NCBI GenBank assembly: GCA_965231045.1 | Contig: OZ246406.1 | Coordinates: forward strand, 52,295-116,294 | Direction: 5' to 3' | Length of the DNA stretch: 64,000 nt | DNA from: an uncultured Candidatus Saccharibacteria bacterium | GTDB lineage: Bacteria; Patescibacteriota; Saccharimonadia; Saccharimonadales; JAGQNJ01 | Position numbers and translations under genes: made by a program | Shown here: piece by piece, positions 2 to 53,541 of the stretch | Layout of the letters: the number at the start of each line of letters is the position of its first letter | Numbering within the stretch: position 1 is the stretch's first letter | The notes under the pieces: generated by a model | Told to the model about the DNA's origin: nothing | Database searches by the model: none | The model's input: the letters and a program-made list of their open reading frames with translations, nothing else

Positions 2-490
2 GCCGCGGAAGTTGAGCTGGTATCTGTACAACAGAGAGAATCAAAGCTAAAAAAAGTACTTGAGACTTCGGCATATGATTATGTACTAATTGACTGTCCG
101 CCATCACTTGGCCTGCTGAGTATCAATGCTTTAACGGCAGCTGACTGGGTGCTAATACCTGTTCAGGCCGAATATTATGCACTGGAAGGTCTGAGCCAAC
201 TACTTGATGTTATTCAGCGTATCAGAGGCGGGCTCAATCCTCATCTTGAGTTACTAGGTGTTGTAGTTACCATGTACGATGGACGAACTACGCTGTCAGA
301 GAACGTATATGCTGAACTTAAAAAGCACTTTGGAAAGAAGTTATTTGATACAGTTGTGCCGCGAAATGTGCGCTTGGCCGAAGCACCGAGTTTTGGAAAG
401 AGTATTGCTGATCATGATAAGTGGTCCAAGGGTGCCAGGGCCTATAAGCAACTAGCCAAAGAAGTTAATAAGCGGGTGGGAGAAAGGTAG
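2..490 (+). CDS. parA: ParA/Soj-family chromosome partitioning ATPase, 5' end cut by window edge
   Basis: Frame 2 is open from the window edge. Translation ...YDYVLIDCPPSLGLLSINALTAADWVLIPVQAEYYALEGLSQLLDVI... is the ParA/Soj core. parB starts 6 nt downstream. Confidence 0.85.
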   Translation, partial: AAEVELVSVQQRESKLKKVLETSAYDYVLIDCPPSLGLLSINALTAADWVLIPVQAEYYALEGLSQLLDVIQRIRGGLNPHLELLGVVVTMYDGRTTLSENVYAELKKHFGKKLFDTVVPRNVRLAEAPSFGKSIADHDKWSKGARAYKQLAKEVNKRVGER

Positions 491-496
491 GCAACT

Positions 497-1366
497 ATGC
501 CAGCCAAAACCGCAGCAAAAGGGTTGGGAAAGGGGTTTGATGCATTAATCCCCCAAGATCTTGATGGTTCACTTCTAACTGAGAAGGGGGAGCGAATCCA
601 ACAACTATCAGTAACTAAGGTTACACCGAATCCGGATCAGCCTAGAAAGCACTTTGACGAGCAAGCGTTAGAGGAGTTGGCTGCCTCAATAAAACAGTAC
701 GGGATTGTACAGCCACTTGTAGTTACCGAATCAGGAGAGGGCTACGTTATTATTGCCGGCGAACGACGCTGGCGAGCTGCACAAATTGCTGGTCTTAAAC
801 ACGTACCAGCTATTGTGCGCTCAAGCCAAGAGCTAGAACAGTTAGAGATTGCCTTAGTTGAGAATGTTCAGCGCGTTGATCTGTCGCCCCTAGAGCAAGC
901 TCTCTCGATTGAGCGACTTCATGATCAATTTAGCCTTAGCTATGGAGACATTGCCAAGCGTTTGAGCAAGGCCACAACCACTGTTAATAACATTGTTAGG
1001 CTATTGCAATTACCTGATGATGCCAAACAAGCACTCAGGGAGCAACGGATCACCGAAGGACATGCTCGGGCAATCCTGGCCTTAAAAGACTTGCCAGAGA
1101 AGCAAGAAGAGTTATTAACCTCAATTGAGAAGTACGGTTGGTCGGTTCGTCAGGCTGAACAGTTTGTCGTGTCCACAAAACAGGGCGCCAAAACTACACA
1201 GGCTGTTCGGTCTAAAATGGCCAAAACAACACCTCAAACGCAGGCATTAAGCGATCACGTACATGCCCCAGTTACCATAAAGCGTACAGCAAAGGGCGGA
1301 CGCCTGGAGATTCATTTTAGCGATGATAAAGATCTGGAGAAGATTATCAAGCAGCTGCTAGGCTAA
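497..1366 (+). CDS. parB: ParB/Spo0J chromosome partitioning protein
   Basis: 289 aa. ParB box IIAGERRWRAA and an HTH-like region (GDIAKRLSKATTTVNNIVRLLQLP). Directly follows parA. Confidence 0.9.
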   Translation: MPAKTAAKGLGKGFDALIPQDLDGSLLTEKGERIQQLSVTKVTPNPDQPRKHFDEQALEELAASIKQYGIVQPLVVTESGEGYVIIAGERRWRAAQIAGLKHVPAIVRSSQELEQLEIALVENVQRVDLSPLEQALSIERLHDQFSLSYGDIAKRLSKATTTVNNIVRLLQLPDDAKQALREQRITEGHARAILALKDLPEKQEELLTSIEKYGWSVRQAEQFVVSTKQGAKTTQAVRSKMAKTTPQTQALSDHVHAPVTIKRTAKGGRLEIHFSDDKDLEKIIKQLLG

Positions 1367-8878: not shown

Positions 8879-11800
8879 ATGTCTACAATACTACTAGAAG
8901 GACCAGCTCAAGATGACCATATTTTAGATGACCCCATTATTGAGGCTCCAGAAATACATGTTTCAGAAACAGCTCTTAAAGCTCCCGAAATTCCCGTAGG
9001 CATAGTTGCATTGCATGATTTGGGAATTGTACAAGTTCTTCCCCCTGTTACTGAAGCGCAGGAGCCTGTAGAGAGCAAAAAAGCCTCGCCAGAAGGCATA
9101 AATCAGCGTACGGTTAATGATCTACATGCAATATTATCTGATGATCCAGATCCTGAACCAAAGGCTGCAGCACGGGCTAGGCTCGAAAAAGGCACTATAA
9201 CTGAACGGGCGCTGGCCTTTTCGCTAGATATCTTAATAGGCTATAAGTACGATAACCCAGTCTACAACGATATAACTCCGCCCGATACACGATCGACAAC
9301 TGGCTTGCGCAGTACAGAACTTGCTGTTATGGACCCAGAAAATAGTTTCTTGAAACGAGCAAATAAAAACAAATATCGGGATGAAAGAAAGCTTTCAAAT
9401 GTCATTTATTCCGACATATCAGGCCTTGCCTACAGTGCTGAGAACAGAGCTAAGGCTGGGAATGTAAATAGTAAGTATTTTGAAAGAGATAGTGAACTAA
9501 CAAGATATGCCGTAAACCTTGTTCTTGATCTGGCAGAACAACTAGATGCCGAAATTTTATATAAGGTCATTGGCTCGGTTCCAAACCTTTCACATTATTT
9601 TAGCCGACCAGAGAGGTTGTATAGATCCTTGGAGAAAGTTCTGGAAAAAAGTGATCAGCCATCAGCTGCCGATGCTTTCTTGTGCGCGCATCTTTGGTAC
9701 GAGCACAATAGGTTAGAGCTCAAAATAAGTGGCAAGGGCCCACAAAGCATAGAGCCTGGTGACGCAGATCACCTGCACAAAAGGGACTTAGAAAATCAGC
9801 GTCTGCTGCAGGATATACTTGCTCGAGCTAATAAATCCAGGGGCTATACAGCAAATGAGTTAAACGCTATTGGCCGGCCTGATCAGATCAAAGAAGAAGA
9901 TTTCCAGGCTATGCATAGATTGAGGGATAAGCTTCCTAACTGGACGGCGGCTGGCGATCTCCCAACAATGCGTAAGTACATTGTCGAGAATCCTAAAGCC
10001 CTGGCTTTAGTTGATAACTCTGAGGGAAGCGCGGTACTTACGTCATTAACAAGACTTGCGAGCAATGATTTGGCGCTTGACGGGCGCCTTATGCGTCAAG
10101 ATACCGAAAAGCTTGCTACGGCGGAAGAAGCCTTCAGAAAGTTCATTGATTTTGTTGATGGGATTCAAGATGTTGAAAAACAATCACTAATAATAGAATC
10201 GACTAGTAACATGGGGGCAATAGTCTTTGGAGATATTGATGAAAAAAATGGTGGTCGTATATATCACCCCGAGCGCTTAACTTGGATTTTGGACAATGCC
10301 CCTGACTTATTAGCAACAGGTAATGCTAGTGAATATATCCACGGCTTATCATGGGCTATGAGACCATCTGACTCATTTATAGAAAAATATGGAGAATTGT
10401 CCGACGAGCAAGTTTGGGAATACATCCAAGAAGCAGTTCTTATTCTTGATGATTTACCAAAAGACAGCCGAACATATGCACTATTAACTGAAGAGCTGAG
10501 TTATAACTATCATAGATCTTCTGAATTTGTTGATGCCTTGCTGACAGGCAAGGCACAAGCTATGGTTGAGGTCATTAGGCAATTAGACGAAAACAGCCCA
10601 ACCTGGTTTGGTGAGCTCCACGGAAAAGATAATATATTTAGACCTTATGCAAGGATTTGGATTGATCAAGCTTTAGGTGACGTGCCGCCGAGTGAAGGTT
10701 TTGAGTCTTTTAAAAACTTCTTGCTTGAATTAAAGAACTACACTGACCTTAGTCCTGAATTACAGCATATTGCTACTGAGCTAATAGTCCAGACAAGTCT
10801 GGCTAATGGTTTTGAACCCTATAGAGTTATATTCAAGCCAGAGAACCGGCAAGTTCTAGAACTGTTTGCCAAACTGAATTTGGCTAATCCATTTATGAGG
10901 GGTTTTGGCCTATTGGAAGACAAATTGGACGTCTTAAGACCGATTGCACAAGAGATAACAGATCACCCACTTATGACAATCCTGGGCACCGAAGCTGCAA
11001 AGGGCATAGGCTCCTTTGCTAAAGATATCCTAACGGCTGATGAGCCGCTAAAATATGCCGATGCACTATATCAAAGTGCTAAAATATTTGGCCAAAATAG
11101 CTCAGAAGAGCTTGTCGATATGCTTTATGCAGTTTACAAAGGCGGCAAAGCTCTGGAAGTTCAAGATGAAGAGCTTAGAAAAATTGTTGGTAAAGGCGGA
11201 CAACCAGGCATCGATAAATTAACAGCGCATCTCAATAAGTTTAAGGAACAAGTAATTACGGGCGATATTGACCTTGAATCATTAGAGCACTCACGACTTT
11301 ATCTTGCATATTTTAAAGCTCTAACCAGATATGAAGTGAGCCAGTGGGGGAGTCATTATGACGATCGGCTTTTGCTACAAATTAAGTTTCAGGCCGAAAA
11401 CCCAGATAGAAAGCGATTTAGTCTAATAGACGATGAGGCATATAAGCCAAGTGAAGTTGTTCAAGTTGCCGAACTTGACCAAGAAAAAGTCCAAGCCTTC
11501 AAAATTACCAAAGATGGCGAAGACCAATTTTGGGAATTGTTAAATGACTTATCTACGGCTAATGACATAGTTAATAATCACCCTGAAATGGTAGCCGACA
11601 TTGTCAGTGATGTGCTGATGAAGATTTCAACACATCAGACTAGACTCGAGCAAGGAAGGGTTAGACTGGCCGAAAAACTTGAGACTGTGCCAGAAGAAAA
11701 GAGTGCTAAACTCCGCCAAAAACTTGAAGATCTTGATGCTGAAATTGCCGAACTAGCTCAGATTGATGAAGCCACACTAATAAATCCAACATTATTTATG

Positions 11801-12613
11801 AGAAACGTTAGCGTTATCGGCCGGTACAAAGATACGCATGGCTCAATTCGTCAGATGCTTTTTGTGGCGGCATTAACAAAATATCCAGAAGAAAACGAAA
11901 GAGTTTCTCAGCTTGCTCGTGGTGGTCTTGATGGCCCAACAATTAACGAATTTCAAGAAGTCGCCGATCTTGTACAACACGTTACTAACCAAGAAACCTG
12001 GGGACAAGTATTTAAGAACTTTGGGCTCTACAAGTCACTTGACCAAATCCTTAATGTCAACGCTATCAATGAAAATATCCAGAGGAGTCTTAACATTGGT
12101 AATGCCGGCACAAGATCTATGCAGTTTATGCCAACCAGGGGTATTCTTATGGAACTTTCTGGTCATATTGGTGATGCCTGCTGGGCTTCAAAATATGAGT
12201 CTATTGCAGGGCAATTCCCTGAATTTACTAGTGTTATCATGACACAAAAACCTGGCACAAAAGATGCTAGGTTTGTAGGTAGCGCCTTCTTAATTGAGGC
12301 CAACGATAAAGACGGTAATCCTGTGCTTGTCATAAGGGGTCTCAACCCAATTCAAAATGTCATCGAACAACTTGATCCAAAAGATTTCTTTAATCAATTT
12401 AGTGCCTATGCCAGAGAAATAGCCGAGAAACGTGGCATGAAACTTGCAGTTGTGATCGATGATCACTGTGGTGGGTCAGCAACTAATCGCCCTGCATTAT
12501 ATGAGTACTTAAGTAAGCAGCTAAAACCTCAGGCAAAACCTGTTGAGCTAGCAGGTTATCCAGAGACTACCTTTAACGGCTACAACATACAAGGCAATAC
12601 CTTTCTTATTTAG
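8879..12613 (+). CDS. Very large (1244 aa) soluble protein of unknown function
   Basis: Uninterrupted 3.7-kb ORF. No signal peptide or TM helix seen. Acidic, helix-rich composition. No catalytic motif recognised. Confidence 0.75.
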
Positions 12614-19090: not shown

Positions 19091-20623
19091 ATGTTGTGGT
19101 TAAGTAAAGTCGTTGATGAGCTTGAGAAGCGCCATCCTGAAGGCGAAATTGTGTTGTCTTCTGGTGTTTCGCCATCCGGTACTTATCATTTGGGCACTTT
19201 GCGAGAAGTCCTGACGGCGGAAGCTTTGGCTCGAGAAATTCGTCGCCGTGGCCGTAAAGCTCACCATATACATGTCGTTGATGACTTAGACGTTTTTCGC
19301 AAGGTACCAGCCGGTGTGCCCGAAAAGTGGCAAGAATATCTTGGCATGCCACTTTGTGATGTCCCGGCACCAGATGGTTCAGATCGATCATACGCTGATT
19401 ATTACTTTGCCGATATGCTTGAGGCCGCCAAAGCCCTTAAGTTGGATATTGATGTCATGCGCTCACATCTAAAATATCGTGATGGATTTTTTGTTCCAGC
19501 GATTGAAAAAGCCCTGACACATACCGAAGATATCAAAAAAATCCTTGAAGATGTTTCGGGTCGCAAGCTCGAAGAGTCCTGGACTCCAATTCAAGTCATA
19601 GAAGATGGTCGGCTCAAGAACCGCCCATTTGTAAGTATCGATACCGCCAAAACGGAAGTTACTTACCTTAATAAAGATGATAAAGAACAAGCCGTGTCAT
19701 ATGCTAAGGGTGAAGTTAAGCTAAGTTGGCGCATTGATTGGCCGGCCAGGTGGTGGCTACTCAAAGTTGATGCTGAGCCATTTGGTAGAGATCACGGTAC
19801 TAAAGGTGGATCATATGATACCGGCAAGCCAATTGCCAAGGAAGTCTTTAGCATTGATGCACCATTTCCGCTAACTTATAACTTTATAAATCGTACTGGT
19901 GCGACGAAAAAAATGAGCAAGAGTTCTGGTGATACGATTACGGCTGCTGAATTGCTGAAAATGTTGCCAGCCGAAGTCGTTTGGTACTTTGTTATTCGTT
20001 ACGCACCAGATAAATTGCTGTTTTTTGATGAGGGCGATACCTTGATGCGCGTCATTGATGAGTTTAGTGAACTGTTGGCCAAACAAAACAAGACCGAAGA
20101 AGAACAACAGTTGATCGACATATGTACAGATGGTGTTACAGATCGAACGATAAGTCACATCCCGTTCACTTTACTAGTCGCCAGTTATCAAGCCGGACTG
20201 AAAGATCCTGATCGCACACTCGAAATTATTAAGCGAAGTGAGTATAAAGAAGTAGCTGAACAACAAGAGGAAATTATTAAGGCCGAGCTGTCATTTATTG
20301 ACGAATGGCTTAAAAAGTCAGCATCTGATGATGTTAAATTCGAGTTACTAGAGACTGTTGATTCAGCAAAATTTAGCCCTGAGCAAAAAACATTTATGTC
20401 ACAACTGGCTGATAAGATCGAAAAAGCGCCAGATGATGTTGACGGCGAATGGTTTCACAAGGCAGTTTATGAATTTAAAGACACAACTAATTTTGAGCCC
20501 AAGGAATTATTCAGCACTTTGTACCAAGCCTTGATCGGAAAAAATTCTGGCCCGAGGGCAGGGTGGTTTTTAAGTTTATTACCGCGCGATTGGCTTATCA
20601 AACGCTTAAAACTTGAGGGGTAG
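19091..20623 (+). CDS. lysK: Lysyl-tRNA synthetase, class I
   Basis: Rossmann-type signatures: HIGH-like SGTYHLGTLREV and KMSKS (KKMSKSSG). 510 aa. No class II motifs. Confidence 0.85.
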   Translation: MLWLSKVVDELEKRHPEGEIVLSSGVSPSGTYHLGTLREVLTAEALAREIRRRGRKAHHIHVVDDLDVFRKVPAGVPEKWQEYLGMPLCDVPAPDGSDRSYADYYFADMLEAAKALKLDIDVMRSHLKYRDGFFVPAIEKALTHTEDIKKILEDVSGRKLEESWTPIQVIEDGRLKNRPFVSIDTAKTEVTYLNKDDKEQAVSYAKGEVKLSWRIDWPARWWLLKVDAEPFGRDHGTKGGSYDTGKPIAKEVFSIDAPFPLTYNFINRTGATKKMSKSSGDTITAAELLKMLPAEVVWYFVIRYAPDKLLFFDEGDTLMRVIDEFSELLAKQNKTEEEQQLIDICTDGVTDRTISHIPFTLLVASYQAGLKDPDRTLEIIKRSEYKEVAEQQEEIIKAELSFIDEWLKKSASDDVKFELLETVDSAKFSPEQKTFMSQLADKIEKAPDDVDGEWFHKAVYEFKDTTNFEPKELFSTLYQALIGKNSGPRAGWFLSLLPRDWLIKRLKLEG

Positions 20624-24630: not shown

Positions 24631-25152
24631 ATGGAAGAAGCAGTACTCGGCGGTGGGTGTTTTTGGTGCTTGGAAGCGAGCTTCCAGCTGATCAAAGGAG
24701 TACATAAAGTAACATCTGGGTATGCAGGTGGAAAATCAAAAAACCCAAGTTATTGGGATCTACATTCACCTCACAATACTCACGCAGAAGTAGTTAAAAT
24801 TGAGTTTGACCCAAAAATTATTAGTTATGAAGACATTCTGGATATATTTTGGGCAATACATGATCCGACTACTCTAAATCGACAGGGCCCGGATATTGGA
24901 GCTGAGTACAGATCGATTATTCTTTATATGAATGATGAGCAAAAGAAGATCGCCTTTGACTCAAAAGATAAAACTCAAAAACTCTGGGATGACCCGATTG
25001 TAACTGAAATAGAACCGCTAACGGAATTCCATGAGGCTGAAGAAGAACATCAAAACTTCTTTAAAAAGCATCCTGAACTTGGATACTGCCAAGTTGTTAT
25101 TAACCCAAAGCTCGAAAAACTTCGCAAAAAATTTGCAGCAAAACTAAAATAA
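24631..25152 (+). CDS. msrA: Peptide methionine (S)-sulfoxide reductase MsrA
   Basis: Active site GGGCFWCLEA plus GYAGG and HDPTTLNRQG. Confidence 0.95.
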   Translation: MEEAVLGGGCFWCLEASFQLIKGVHKVTSGYAGGKSKNPSYWDLHSPHNTHAEVVKIEFDPKIISYEDILDIFWAIHDPTTLNRQGPDIGAEYRSIILYMNDEQKKIAFDSKDKTQKLWDDPIVTEIEPLTEFHEAEEEHQNFFKKHPELGYCQVVINPKLEKLRKKFAAKLK

Positions 25153-25191
25153 GTGCATGGTAAACAATATTCATGCTAAACTAACCTTAAT

Positions 25192-25977
25192 ATGGCTGTG
25201 AGTAAAAAAAGAGACGTTTATACTGATATCCGGGTATTACAGCTTGCAAGAGTGGTAGCTTTCTTAATTGGCGCTGTGGTTGTCGGAGTATTATTGTGGG
25301 GCAAAACACTGCCACTAAACGTGACATACGTGACGAAAGACTCATTAGCGAGTGATGTCTCAACAGTATTTGTGCCAGCACTGCGTAACTTGCTAGATGT
25401 ACCAGTTGGCTTGTTAGCTGCCCTGGCGCTAGCGATTTCAGGTTTCTTTGGCCTGTATCGTTATACAAAAGGTGAGTCTGAGTATAAAAAATCAGTTAAG
25501 AAAAGTAGCGATAGCCTGAAATGGATTGACTTAGGTGCCAGTTCATCAATTATTATCAGCGTAGTAGCACTAACTTCAGGGGTCGCTGACGCAGGAACTA
25601 TAAAGATTGTAGCTGGCCTATTACTTGTTACAGCCGCCCTTGGCTGGCTGGCTGATAAGCAAAACGTTGCTGCGAAGAAACCTGATTACAGTGCTTTTGG
25701 TATAAGTGTTCTTAGCGGTCTGTTAGCCTGGGTTACGATAGTTGTGACTCTAATTTGCACGACTCTTTATGGTGAAGTTCGCATGCCTTGGTTTAGTTAT
25801 GCCTTAGCAGGTGTAGTCTTTGTCGGCTTCGCGGCTCTGGCTGTCAATCAGCTTTATAACATCCAAACGCGTAAACAGTGGAAGCAATATCCCTTCACTG
25901 AACGTAATTATTTGCTAATCGATATTGTACTTAAGGTAGCCTTCGTCGCAATTTTGACTATTGGTCTGAGAGGCTAG
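25192..25977 (+). CDS. Heliorhodopsin-like seven-transmembrane protein (divergent)
   Basis: Seven hydrophobic helices with a long loop after TM1. Blocks DVPVGLLAALALAISGFFGLY, SLKWIDLGASSSIIISVVALTSGVAD and ERNYLLIDIVLKVAFVAIL parallel TM2, TM3 and TM7 of prototype heliorhodopsin 48C12, recalled from memory, including the TM7 Lys. Confidence 0.6.
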   Translation: MAVSKKRDVYTDIRVLQLARVVAFLIGAVVVGVLLWGKTLPLNVTYVTKDSLASDVSTVFVPALRNLLDVPVGLLAALALAISGFFGLYRYTKGESEYKKSVKKSSDSLKWIDLGASSSIIISVVALTSGVADAGTIKIVAGLLLVTAALGWLADKQNVAAKKPDYSAFGISVLSGLLAWVTIVVTLICTTLYGEVRMPWFSYALAGVVFVGFAALAVNQLYNIQTRKQWKQYPFTERNYLLIDIVLKVAFVAILTIGLRG

Positions 25978-25981
25978 TATA

Positions 25982-26662
25982 GTGCGTGGCAATATTGCCA
26001 AAAAGGCTCAGTTGCCTCTGAGTGTTAATACGCCTAAAAATATTATTTTTGACTTCGATGGGACGATTGCCAACACTTTGCCAATTGTAATTGACCTAGT
26101 TGAACATTGGTCGGTAAGTAACATAAAACTTACACCAGAATTAATTGACGAACTTCGCGGTTTACCAGCCCAGCAAGTCATTAAACGCGCTGGCATACCA
26201 CTGAGAAAAATTCCTGGGCTAATTACTAGGGGGCGCAAAGAGCTGATTGAGAAACTGGCGGATGCCAAACCATTCGAAGACATTATCGAGGTTATTGAAA
26301 GATTGGCCGAAAAGCATAATTTATATGTGATGAGTAGTAATAGTAGCGGCAATATCAATCAATTCCTGCAAACCTATAACGTTTCGCAGCACTTCCGAGC
26401 GATTTATGGAAATGTATCAGTCTTTGGTAAAACTAAGATGATGAAAAAGATCATCAAGCTTGAACGATTAGACAAAGATGCTTGTATATATGTTGGTGAT
26501 GAAACACGTGATATTGAGGCGGCACATCGAGCGAAACTACCAATTGTATCTGTAACATGGGGTTTTAATAGCAAAAAGATTTTAGTTAAATACAAGCCAG
26601 ACTTTTTAGCTAACCAACCAAATGATTTGTTAAAAATACTGAATAAGAATGCGACTACATAG
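25982..26662 (+). CDS. HAD-superfamily phosphatase (phosphoglycolate phosphatase-like)
   Basis: Motif I IIFDFDGTIANT, motif IV YVGDETRDIEAAHRA. Confidence 0.8.
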   Translation: MRGNIAKKAQLPLSVNTPKNIIFDFDGTIANTLPIVIDLVEHWSVSNIKLTPELIDELRGLPAQQVIKRAGIPLRKIPGLITRGRKELIEKLADAKPFEDIIEVIERLAEKHNLYVMSSNSSGNINQFLQTYNVSQHFRAIYGNVSVFGKTKMMKKIIKLERLDKDACIYVGDETRDIEAAHRAKLPIVSVTWGFNSKKILVKYKPDFLANQPNDLLKILNKNATT

Positions 26663-41836: not shown

Positions 41837-42304
41837 ATGAGCATCATGGAACCTACGCAAAATACAAATCAAAATCCAGTAACTGTACCCGAACCAACAC
41901 CACAAGCGCCTGCGAATTCTAAGGATCTTAAAGGCAAAAAAATTCTTCTAGTTGAAGACGACGATGGATTAGCGAATGTTTACCTAACCCGTCTTGAAGC
42001 CGAAGGCTTTAATGTTAAGCGTGTTCCAAATGGCGAAGATGCATTGGCTGTAGCTATTGAATACCGGCCTGATTTAATTTTGCTTGATGTTATGATGCCA
42101 AAAGTTAGCGGTTTTGACGTACTAGATATATTGCGAAATACACCCGAGACAGCCAACGTTAAGGTTGTTATGCTAACGGCACTTAGCCAAGATACCGATA
42201 AAGAAAAAGCCGAAAAATTAGGGGCTGACGACTACTTGGTTAAATCGCAGGTAGTAATTGCTGACGTAGTTGAGAGAATCAAACACCATCTATCAGGTAT
42301 GTAA
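41837..42304 (+). CDS. Single-domain response regulator (CheY-like receiver), canonical residues intact
   Basis: LLVEDDD, phospho-acceptor in LILLDVMMP, LTA Thr and YLVKS Lys all present. No output domain and no adjacent kinase. Confidence 0.85.
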   Translation: MSIMEPTQNTNQNPVTVPEPTPQAPANSKDLKGKKILLVEDDDGLANVYLTRLEAEGFNVKRVPNGEDALAVAIEYRPDLILLDVMMPKVSGFDVLDILRNTPETANVKVVMLTALSQDTDKEKAEKLGADDYLVKSQVVIADVVERIKHHLSGM

Positions 42305-49153: not shown

Positions 49154-49537
49154 ATGACAAGTGTGTTGTTGATAGAGCCAGACAAGCTTCTAGCTATGAC
49201 TTATATTAAGGCTCTGAAGTCTGAGAATATTACATTGCACTGGGAGTCTTCGGCCCAGAACTCCGTAAGTTATATCGATAAACATCCCCCAACGCTAATT
49301 ATTTTGGAACTACAACTTGCTTCACATAATGGGGTAGAGTTTCTGCACGAACTTCGATCGCATAGTGATTGGCAAAAAATCCCAGTTATTCTGCACACAG
49401 TTGTACCAATGGCTGAGATAAATCTTAGTGATGATGCAGCTAAGCAACTTGGGATTGTAGAGTACTTATATAAGCCACAAACTTCATTGGCTCAATTAAT
49501 AGCTAAAGTTGGTAAACACCTATTTGAGGATAACTAA
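49154..49537 (+). CDS. Receiver-domain protein with Glu at the phospho-acceptor position
   Basis: Receiver layout VLLIEPD...LIILELQLASHNG...ILHTVV...EYLYKP. Acceptor Asp replaced by Glu; Thr and Lys retained. Confidence 0.6.
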   Translation: MTSVLLIEPDKLLAMTYIKALKSENITLHWESSAQNSVSYIDKHPPTLIILELQLASHNGVEFLHELRSHSDWQKIPVILHTVVPMAEINLSDDAAKQLGIVEYLYKPQTSLAQLIAKVGKHLFEDN

Positions 49538-53163: not shown

Positions 53164-53541
53164 ATGTTGGGCGAATCAAATGTACATGCTATTGTAGCGG
53201 TCAAAGATTTGGAAGAATCAAAAAAGTTTTATGAAGAGGTAGTGGGGCTAACAAAAGTTGACGAAAACCCCGGCGGCATTATGTATAAGAGTGGTGATTC
53301 AAAAATTTTCGTATATAAATCAGAGTTTGCAGGTACAAATAAGGCTAACGCAGCATCATGGGAAGTATCTGACATAAATGCTGTCGTAGCTGACCTTAAG
53401 GGTAAAGGCGTGAGTTTCGAGCATTATGACAACATGCCCGGGGTAACTCTTGAAGGCGACGTGCATGTTATGGGAGATATGAAAGCCGCGTGGTTCAAGG
53501 ACCCGTCAGGCAACATTCTTTGCCTTGGCAATGCCATGTAA
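53164..53541 (+). CDS. VOC/glyoxalase-bleomycin-resistance family protein
   Basis: 125 aa. HAIVAVKDLEESKKFYEEVVGL beta-alpha-beta-beta-beta start and C-terminal AAWFKDPSGNIL. AAGGAGGG SD. Confidence 0.7.
   Translation: MLGESNVHAIVAVKDLEESKKFYEEVVGLTKVDENPGGIMYKSGDSKIFVYKSEFAGTNKANAASWEVSDINAVVADLKGKGVSFEHYDNMPGVTLEGDVHVMGDMKAAWFKDPSGNILCLGNAM

Follow-up and report, generated by a model that had tools for sequence, protein, structure and literature searches.

The physiological role of heliorhodopsins (HeRs) has been debated since 2018, and few of their partner proteins are known. In the HeR 48C12, Glu107 replaces Asp85 and Ser237 replaces Asp212 of bacteriorhodopsin (bR), Ser237 hydrogen-bonds the Schiff base, and the AB loop forms a beta-sheet with a conserved Pro40 (PMC7049168). 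The helix-7 motif of HeRs is S-x-x-x-K (PMC9166423, PMC7049168), and Ser237, Glu107, His23, and His80 were reported to be highly conserved across all HeRs in a set of 479 sequences (Kovalev et al. 2020, PMC7049168). A screen of 1326 genomes of the candidate phyla radiation (CPR) found about 98 HeRs, 80 of them in Saccharimonadia; the usual helix-7 motifs of CPR HeRs are SLVAK, SLIAK, and SFVAK, and a role in mitigating oxidative stress was proposed (Chiriac et al. 2022, PMC9166423). A general link between HeRs and oxidative-stress genes has also been described (Bulzu et al. 2021, Chazan et al. 2021). Rhodopsin-bearing Saccharibacteria lack blh, and saccharibacterial opsins, like TaHeR, bind external retinal within seconds, with actinobacterial hosts proposed as its source (Jaffe et al. 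2022, PMC9296517). For AbHeR and glutamine synthetase (PMC9529153), and for OcHeR and the ABC transporter OmrDE (PMC11109279), the HeR has been shown to bind and regulate a neighbour-encoded protein in the light. The subject of the present analysis is a HeR gene that directly follows msrA, the gene for peptide methionine sulfoxide reductase A, in a 64,000-nt stretch of DNA (the window; contig OZ246406.1, positions 52,295 to 116,294) from an uncultured Saccharimonadales bacterium, a CPR organism with a reduced genome.

The favoured explanation for this gene, to which a probability of about 0.55 is assigned as a whole, is that it encodes a retinal-scavenging light sensor with MsrA as the leading candidate partner. 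The occurrence of HeRs in Saccharibacteria, the scavenging of retinal, and the link to oxidative stress are already in print, so the idea put forward in the initial annotation, which was made from the sequence without database searches, is less novel than presented. What is new is a clade of HeRs that contains no histidine, carries an aspartate at the counterion position, and has D-x-x-x-K in helix 7. The association of msrA and HeR genes across the order, together with frequent loss of the Schiff-base lysine, also appears to be unreported.

The open reading frame (ORF) matches the Pfam family Heliorhodopsin (PF18761) with 114.7 bits (E = 5.5e-33, cutoff 26.7) over 224 of the 242 profile positions, and the NCBIfam HeR equivalog NF038020 with 117.1 bits (cutoff 100). 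Since the equivalog cutoff is passed, the ORF almost certainly encodes a true member of the HeR family; the divergence described in the initial annotation is borne out by 25% identity to 48C12, whereas its label of merely HeR-like was too cautious. In a HMMER search of PDB sequences, residues 39-251 pair with residues 38-244 of 48C12 (E about 1e-18), reproducing the TM2, TM3, TM6, and TM7 blocks of the initial annotation, and a profile of the branch to which the protein belongs matches TaHeR at 5e-57 and 48C12 at 2e-51. Bac_rhodopsin (PF01036) gives no match even at E <= 10 and structural similarity to type-1 rhodopsins is lower, ruling out a type-1 identity.

An initial AlphaFold model built from 9 sequences (pLDDT 65.7) was replaced by an AlphaFold2 model from 99 family sequences with a pLDDT of 95.3 and a pTM of 0.90. 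The model contains helices at residues 9-34, 72-91, 108-128, 134-158, 167-193, 200-225, and 233-260, and DSSP assigns beta-strands at residues 39-49 and 60-71, which form a beta-hairpin between helices 1 and 2; the ORF call and the model thus agree with the 261-aa protein of seven hydrophobic helices and a long loop past helix 1 first described. Pro40 of 48C12 corresponds to Pro41. The ten best PDB matches of the model are all HeRs (48C12 and TaHeR; TM-score 0.80-0.90, root-mean-square deviation 2.2-3.4 Å), whereas type-1 rhodopsins reach a TM-score of at most 0.73. With the N-terminus placed inside, as the initial annotation expected, 14 lysine and arginine residues are predicted to lie inside and 5 outside, a charge bias that fits the inverted topology with a cytoplasmic N-terminus. 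A HeR profile match, a HeR-type bundle of seven transmembrane (7-TM) helices, and a lysine in mid-helix 7, on which the identification had been staked, were all found. Comparison with a 95%-identical strain (locus L089) gives a dN/dS of 0.13 for the HeR gene and 0.007-0.06 for nearby housekeeping genes; the gene is under purifying selection that is looser than that on its neighbours.

The structurally important residues named by Kovalev et al. 2020 (PMC7049168) were mapped onto the window HeR and its clade, with the mapping outside the clade resting on alignments of 20-30% identity. About 11 of the 28 named residues are changed in the window HeR. Those kept include the Schiff-base lysine (K241->K248), which lies in mid-helix 7 in the Schiff-base column, together with S76->S83, S111->S117, Y92->Y98, E230->E237, W105->W111, Y226->Y233, Q213->Q220, W173->W180, F206->F213, A210->A217, P40->P41, and D127->D133. 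Conservative substitutions are found at E107->D113, R104->K110, E149->D155, and N16->Q17, and radical ones at H23->F24, H80->G87, Y108->L114, N101->D107, F72->A79, M141->T147, Q26->G27, W246->A253, and, most notable of all, S237->D244; N138 of 48C12 is replaced by leucine. The retained lysine and the exchanges of the counterion glutamate for aspartate, its neighbouring arginine for lysine, and tyrosine for leucine are as the initial annotation had read them. So is the loss of both conserved histidines of TM1 and TM2, as the whole protein contains no histidine. A profile alignment to the TaHeR PDB sequence gives the same placement of H23->F24 and H80->G87.

Overlooked at first was the aspartate that occupies the Ser237 position four residues ahead of the lysine. 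The helix-7 motif reads D244-I-V-L-K248 rather than S-x-x-x-K, with the aspartate present in every member of the clade, so that the helix-3 carboxylate Asp113, in place of Glu107, is joined by a second carboxylate, Asp244, beside the lysine. Ser237 bonds the Schiff base in 48C12, and residues spaced i and i+4 point to one side of a helix, so that D244 is expected beside the Schiff base. D113 and D244-x-x-x-K248 match Asp85 and Asp212/Lys216 of bR, and the type-1 Asp ... Asp-x-x-x-Lys arrangement thus appears to have been restored on a HeR scaffold, which is best read as a convergent resemblance and not as type-1 membership. The His-less branch falls outside the published description of conserved HeR residues.

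A word-indexed search recovered 8 relatives with 52-95% identity, which with the query form a clade of 9 sequences; a genome scan found no close relatives of this clade among GTDB species representatives. All members have K110, D or E at position 113 (Asp in 7/9, Glu in 2/9), D244, and K248, with helix-7 motifs of the DIVLK, DIALK, or DLLLK type, and K248, D244, E237, W111, Y98, S83, Q220, W180, F213, and A217 do not vary within the clade. K248 is also invariant in the 99-sequence alignment, which was itself selected for Lys-bearing proteins. An exhaustive profile search of 1.84 billion representatives identified 979 family members at E <= 1e-3, and residues were surveyed in 158 sequences, comprising the best 150 representatives, which are those nearest the query and not a random sample, and the 8 clade members. 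Around the query the family forms a large His-less branch with about 20-25% identity to 48C12, within which a crude neighbour-joining tree places the clade as a single nested group. In the survey the helix-3 counterion is usually Asp (71/158), the Ser237 position is divided among S, N, D, and G, and the canonical HH..E..S..K type is not seen before rank 111 and is common only beyond about rank 120. Two carboxylates together with the lysine are found almost only in the query clade, in the outliers P0010 and P0011, which also have Asp at the 244 position, and in P0070.

Two further patterns emerged from the family survey. In a separate HeR clade the helix-3 counterion position holds Y, F, A, G, L, or V, none of them a carboxylate, the Ser237 position is Asp, and the lysine is retained; this pattern is found in about 20 of the 158 representatives (for example P0050, P0053, P0107, P0117, P0120, and P0137, as well as P0094, P0083, P0075, P0084, and others), and it looks as if the counterion had shifted from helix 3 to helix 7. 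Many members of the His-less branch measure 295-380 aa and carry an N-terminal extension of 40-130 residues ahead of helix 1 (P0016-P0061 and others; loci L006, L013, L015, L019, L023, L047, L048, and L057), although some of the extensions at the loci may reflect a generous choice of start codon. MORN and zinc-ribbon fusions are known from other HeRs (Bulzu et al.).

The genomic neighbourhood was compared across Saccharimonadales using 80 loci anchored on SecA, drawn from GTDB species representatives in which SecA is 70-76% identical to that of the window; nearly all of these genomes carry the label Candidatus Saccharibacteria or Saccharimonadales. The anchored loci reach up to 8 kb upstream of SecA and span the HeR position; counts refer to the 61 loci that extend 4.5 kb or more upstream, which are not phylogenetically independent. 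One HeR-family gene occupies the syntenic site in 38 of the 61 loci, upstream of (HAD)-(RsmE)-PDDEXK-SerRS-HPF-SecA, and searches with 20 diverse queries found no second copy at any locus. The adjacency to msrA noted in the initial annotation, with a 39-nt spacer in the window, is conserved far more widely than could be known from one sequence: msrA is directly adjacent in 20 of the 38 HeR loci, on the same strand in 12 (typically at 30-50 nt) and divergent in 8, and lies 0.6-1.6 kb from the HeR gene in another 8. Neither gene is present at 13 of the 61 loci. Co-presence of msrA and HeR at the locus has an odds ratio of 3.6 (Fisher p = 0.03, with no phylogenetic correction). Within the query clade the order PMSR-HeR-HAD and a spacer of 37-39 nt are retained at 95, 66, 60, and 52% identity. 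No paper mentioning both heliorhodopsin and methionine sulfoxide reductase was found in the literature searched, and MsrA is missing from the ten groups into which 448 HeR neighbour genes have been classified in print.

In five of the eight loci with a gap between msrA and HeR (L007, L009, L020, L027, and L057), the intervening gene is a sortase-like gene of about 225 aa on the minus strand, which occurs at loci with canonical-type HeRs and is assigned by its 'AGHRFLYTA' motif only, and the other three gaps hold unrelated ORFs. The msrB or other redox gene suspected in these gaps was not found.

The HeRs at this locus are exceptionally diverse and deeply split, with ten of the canonical type (HHREYMSK, 40-44% identity to 48C12) and most others His-less. 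HeR identity tracks SecA identity (Spearman 0.37), with HeRs 50-75% identical where SecA is at least 85% identical, which indicates largely vertical descent with fast divergence and disfavours wholesale horizontal replacement as the sole source of the diversity. The Schiff-base lysine is replaced in 13 of 37 syntenic homologs, by R in five and otherwise by A, T, W, E, V, or L (L011, L023, L028, L029, L036, L037, L040, L048, L051, L055, L069, L071, and L077), and it is absent from about 35 of the 158 family representatives. The Lys-less homologs are intact ORFs in which E230, R104, and W105 are conserved and the E-R-x-Y motif anchors the alignment well, and 8 of the 13 still lie directly beside msrA. 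Lys-less HeRs were not found described in a limited search of the literature.

Signals for expression were sought in the spacer between msrA and the HeR gene, whose sequence is kept throughout the clade, including comparisons in which synonymous sites must be saturated. A TGnTAnACT core, shared without change by five clade loci whose proteins are as little as 52% identical, stops 9 nt short of the ATG, which no Shine-Dalgarno sequence precedes, suggesting that the HeR gene has its own promoter with a putative extended -10 element and that its mRNA may be leaderless or near-leaderless. The counts from a generic promoter and terminator scan of positions 22-28 kb did not exceed those from shuffled sequence; the scan placed no terminator between msrA and HeR and did not report TGnTAnACT. 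The promoter-like element and the eight divergent msrA-HeR pairs argue that co-transcription with msrA, as first suggested, is doubtful as the conserved feature, with read-through from msrA possible.

Because the lysine, both carboxylates, and several pocket residues are fixed in the clade and the gene is under purifying selection, the window HeR is most likely a retinal-binding photoreceptor, and dependence on retinal is considered probable. The protein would be a functional 7-TM HeR that most likely carries all-trans-retinal at Lys248 in a rebuilt Schiff-base region, with both histidines gone, Asp113 as the counterion, and Asp244 one helical turn before the lysine. Annotation of the whole 64-kb window with Pfam found no carotenoid or retinal synthesis gene, in agreement with the initial annotation (families covered were phytoene synthase, phytoene desaturase, lycopene cyclase, Blh/BCD, RPE65, and polyprenyl synthase), and the cell is probably unable to make retinal and would take it up from a host or the surroundings. 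Like the HeRs characterised to date, the protein would be a slow-cycling light sensor that pumps no ions and acts by direct contact on a cytoplasmic or membrane partner, whose activity it would change; regulation via the cytoplasmic face is proposed here on the strength of HeRs that regulate adjacently encoded partners. The leading candidate for the partner is the adjoining MsrA, which repairs methionine oxidised under light and oxygen stress. Given that the protein is a photoreceptor, the assignment of MsrA itself is tentative, with the odds against it.

Several observations weigh against this explanation. The pocket differs from that of 48C12 at several positions (Y108L, M141T, N138L, and F72A). 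On the side of the partnership, msrA is not in view at 10 of the 38 HeR loci, msrA occurs without HeR at 10 of the 61 loci, where HAD is retained directly after msrA, the HeR gene has a promoter-like element of its own, and the whole region is a dense array of same-strand genes. The adjacency of msrA could therefore be inherited gene order only, with a photoreceptor whose partner lies elsewhere, such as the HAD hydrolase 4 nt downstream, a MacB-type ABC transporter two genes upstream, membrane-lipid remodelling, or an unlinked protein. This is a possible alternative, though one held with limited confidence. Regional gene order is broadly conserved in Saccharimonadales whether or not HeR is present, with the PDDEXK-SerRS-HPF-SecA block retained in nearly all 80 loci; canonical-type HeRs are separated from msrA by the sortase-like gene; msrA has recombined between near-identical strains while the HeR gene was untouched; an ABC-transporter partner has published precedent; and few neighbour families are HeR-specific (Chazan et al., bioRxiv 10.1101/2021.02.16.431466). 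Inherited order accounts less readily for direct adjacency that survives inversion of msrA in eight loci, across HeR types only 20-37% identical, and for the positive association between the presence of msrA and HeR.

The initial annotation offered a non-photic role as the alternative to a scavenged chromophore. Since 13 of the 37 syntenic homologs lack the lysine, the HeR family can apparently function without covalently bound retinal, and the window HeR might itself be a retinal-free membrane scaffold, a regulator, or a binder of small molecules in which the lysine was kept for another reason. The Lys-less proteins, with R, T, A, V, L, Q, W, or E at the lysine position in the syntenic and family-wide sets, speak for such a role through their intact ORFs, their conserved E230, R104, and W105, and their frequent place beside msrA, as does an organism that most likely cannot make retinal. 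It is nevertheless considered unlikely for this clade, where the lysine and both flanking carboxylates are fixed over 52-95% identity along with the pocket residues W180, F213, A217, and Q220, a pattern expected with a bound chromophore, and where external retinal is plausible for Saccharibacteria. More improbable still is a light-driven proton transporter in which the bR-like triad of Asp113, Asp244, and Lys110, at the positions of bR Asp85, Asp212, and Arg82, makes a pump or channel. Proton transport has been reported for the viral heliorhodopsin V2HeR3, the histidine pair implicated in internal proton handling of ordinary HeRs is absent, and a CPR cell would profit from a proton gradient. 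However, among the residues named in PMC7049168 there is no conserved polar or charged chain in the extracellular half, the fold and the cytoplasmic cluster (E237, D155, Y233, and W111) are as in non-transporting HeRs, and loss of the histidine pair in HULAa30F3 gives a sensory-type photocycle with less of the M intermediate and no pump.

MsrA, a small and soluble protein, can be assayed by a standard method, and its pairing with HeR is conserved across an order of CPR bacteria. The clade is a natural experiment in which a HeR scaffold carries the type-1 Asp/Asp/Lys set without histidine, and the Lys-less relatives at the same locus could reveal the role of the HeR fold in the absence of retinal. 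Among CPR bacteria, this would be a second retinal-dependent protein family that relies on host-supplied chromophore. It is conceivable, though rather doubtful, that the HeRs of this locus form a new functional class of membrane-anchored MsrA regulators, light-gated where the lysine is present and retinal-independent where it is not; light gating in such a class would use scavenged retinal and the unusual double-Asp, His-less Schiff-base site, and the class would tie HeRs directly, at the biochemical level, to the repair of damage by photo-oxidation.

Genes in the window are densely packed and predominantly on the plus strand, with HAD downstream of HeR throughout the clade, and Rfam identifies no RNA families in the window. 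Coordinates are collected in Table 1.

Table 1. Positions of the features discussed, numbered from the first letter of the window or, where a locus is named, within that locus.
Feature	Position	Strand	Basis or remark
Heliorhodopsin (HeR) family gene	25192..25977	+	ATG start, 261 aa; ORF, Pfam PF18761, NCBIfam NF038020, AF2 model
msrA (peptide methionine sulfoxide reductase A, 173 aa), conserved upstream neighbour	24631..25152	+	Pfam PMSR
HAD-family hydrolase gene	25982..26662	+	starts 4 nt past HeR stop codon
Lys248 codon, predicted retinal Schiff-base Lys, helix 7	25933..25935	+	alignment to K241 of 48C12
Asp244 codon, Ser237 position of 48C12 / Asp212 of bR; D-x-x-x-K	25921..25923	+	alignment
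Asp113 codon, helix-3 counterion position (Glu107 of 48C12, Asp85 of bR)	25528..25530	+	alignment
Long helix 1-2 loop, predicted beta-hairpin, residues 39-71	25306..25404	+	DSSP strands in model
TGnTAnACT, putative extended -10-like element, msrA-HeR spacer	25174..25182	+	spacer conservation; promoter function inferred
parA/parB	149..1366	+	
1244-aa ORF	8879..12613	+	no recorded Pfam match
Lysyl-tRNA synthetase gene	19091..20623	+	Pfam tRNA-synt_1f
Response-regulator receiver gene, stand-alone	41837..42304	+	
Response-regulator receiver gene, stand-alone	49154..49537	+	
Glyoxalase-family gene	53164..53541	+	
Sortase-like gene, locus L007	1631..2344	-	motif
Sortase-like gene, locus L009	1814..2503	-	motif
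Sortase-like gene, locus L020	379..1044	-	motif
Sortase-like gene, locus L027	1450..2118	-	motif
Sortase-like gene, locus L057	3178..3858	-	motif
msrA counterpart, locus L089	3440..3961		
Stretch upstream of the window, with 2097-aa protein bearing a Peptidase_S74 domain, locus L086	1..5125		directly upstream of window

The msrA gene of the window and its counterpart in L089 share only 77.6% DNA and 78% protein identity (dS 1.28), whereas neighbouring genes are 92-98% identical in DNA, which points to an msrA allele swapped by recombination between the two strains. Both strains have the same final 19 nt of msrA and the same spacer, and one boundary of the swap would therefore lie inside msrA. 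The parA/parB genes at the start of the window and a GC skew that is positive over its whole length suggest that the window lies probably just past the replication origin, on the leading strand. The 1244-aa ORF lies between the genes for ribosomal proteins L31 and S2 and is exceptionally large for an unannotated protein of such a small genome. The lysyl-tRNA synthetase is of the class I type. The two receiver genes, in a window that contains no histidine kinase, and the glyoxalase-family gene lie 16-28 kb away from the HeR gene, and both gene types have been discussed in the literature as HeR-associated.

Compared with the described systems, the window HeR is closest in kind to 48C12 (PDB 6su3/6su4/6uh3) and TaHeR (6is6), with which it shares the Pfam and NCBIfam family, the 7-TM fold with an AB-loop beta-hairpin, the inverted topology, the helix-7 lysine, a carboxylate at the helix-3 counterion position, and, relative to 48C12, equivalents of the cluster E230/Y226/W105/Y92/S76/S111. 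It differs from them in its identity of only 20-25% and in having F24 and G87 in place of His23 and His80, and from 48C12 in the exchanges Glu107->Asp, Arg104->Lys, Tyr108->Leu, Asn101->Asp, Glu149->Asp, and Ser237->Asp. The HeRs described from CPR bacteria and Saccharimonadia (PMC9166423) belong to the same host group and the same family, but the window clade departs from them in its DIVLK/DIALK/DLLLK-type motifs, and linkage to msrA is not described in that paper. HULAa30F3, a HeR from Chloroflexi that also naturally lacks both conserved histidines, binds retinal, with absorption at 562 nm, and accumulates little M in its photocycle (bioRxiv 10.1101/2021.02.16.431466), making it the best experimental precedent for a photoactive His-less HeR; unlike the window HeR, it is a member of branch A, the 48C12 group, with Leu in place of each histidine, and the parts of that report consulted mention no second carboxylate at the Ser237 position. 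The SacR proton pumps, which are saccharibacterial type-1 rhodopsins (PMC9296517), share the helix-3 Asp and the helix-7 D-x-x-x-K with the window HeR and depend on external retinal, as proposed here, whereas the window HeR is set apart from type-1 rhodopsins by its family profile, its opposite predicted topology, and its fold. The mode of action of AbHeR and OcHeR, finally, is the one proposed here for the window HeR and, by analogy, for MsrA as its candidate partner.

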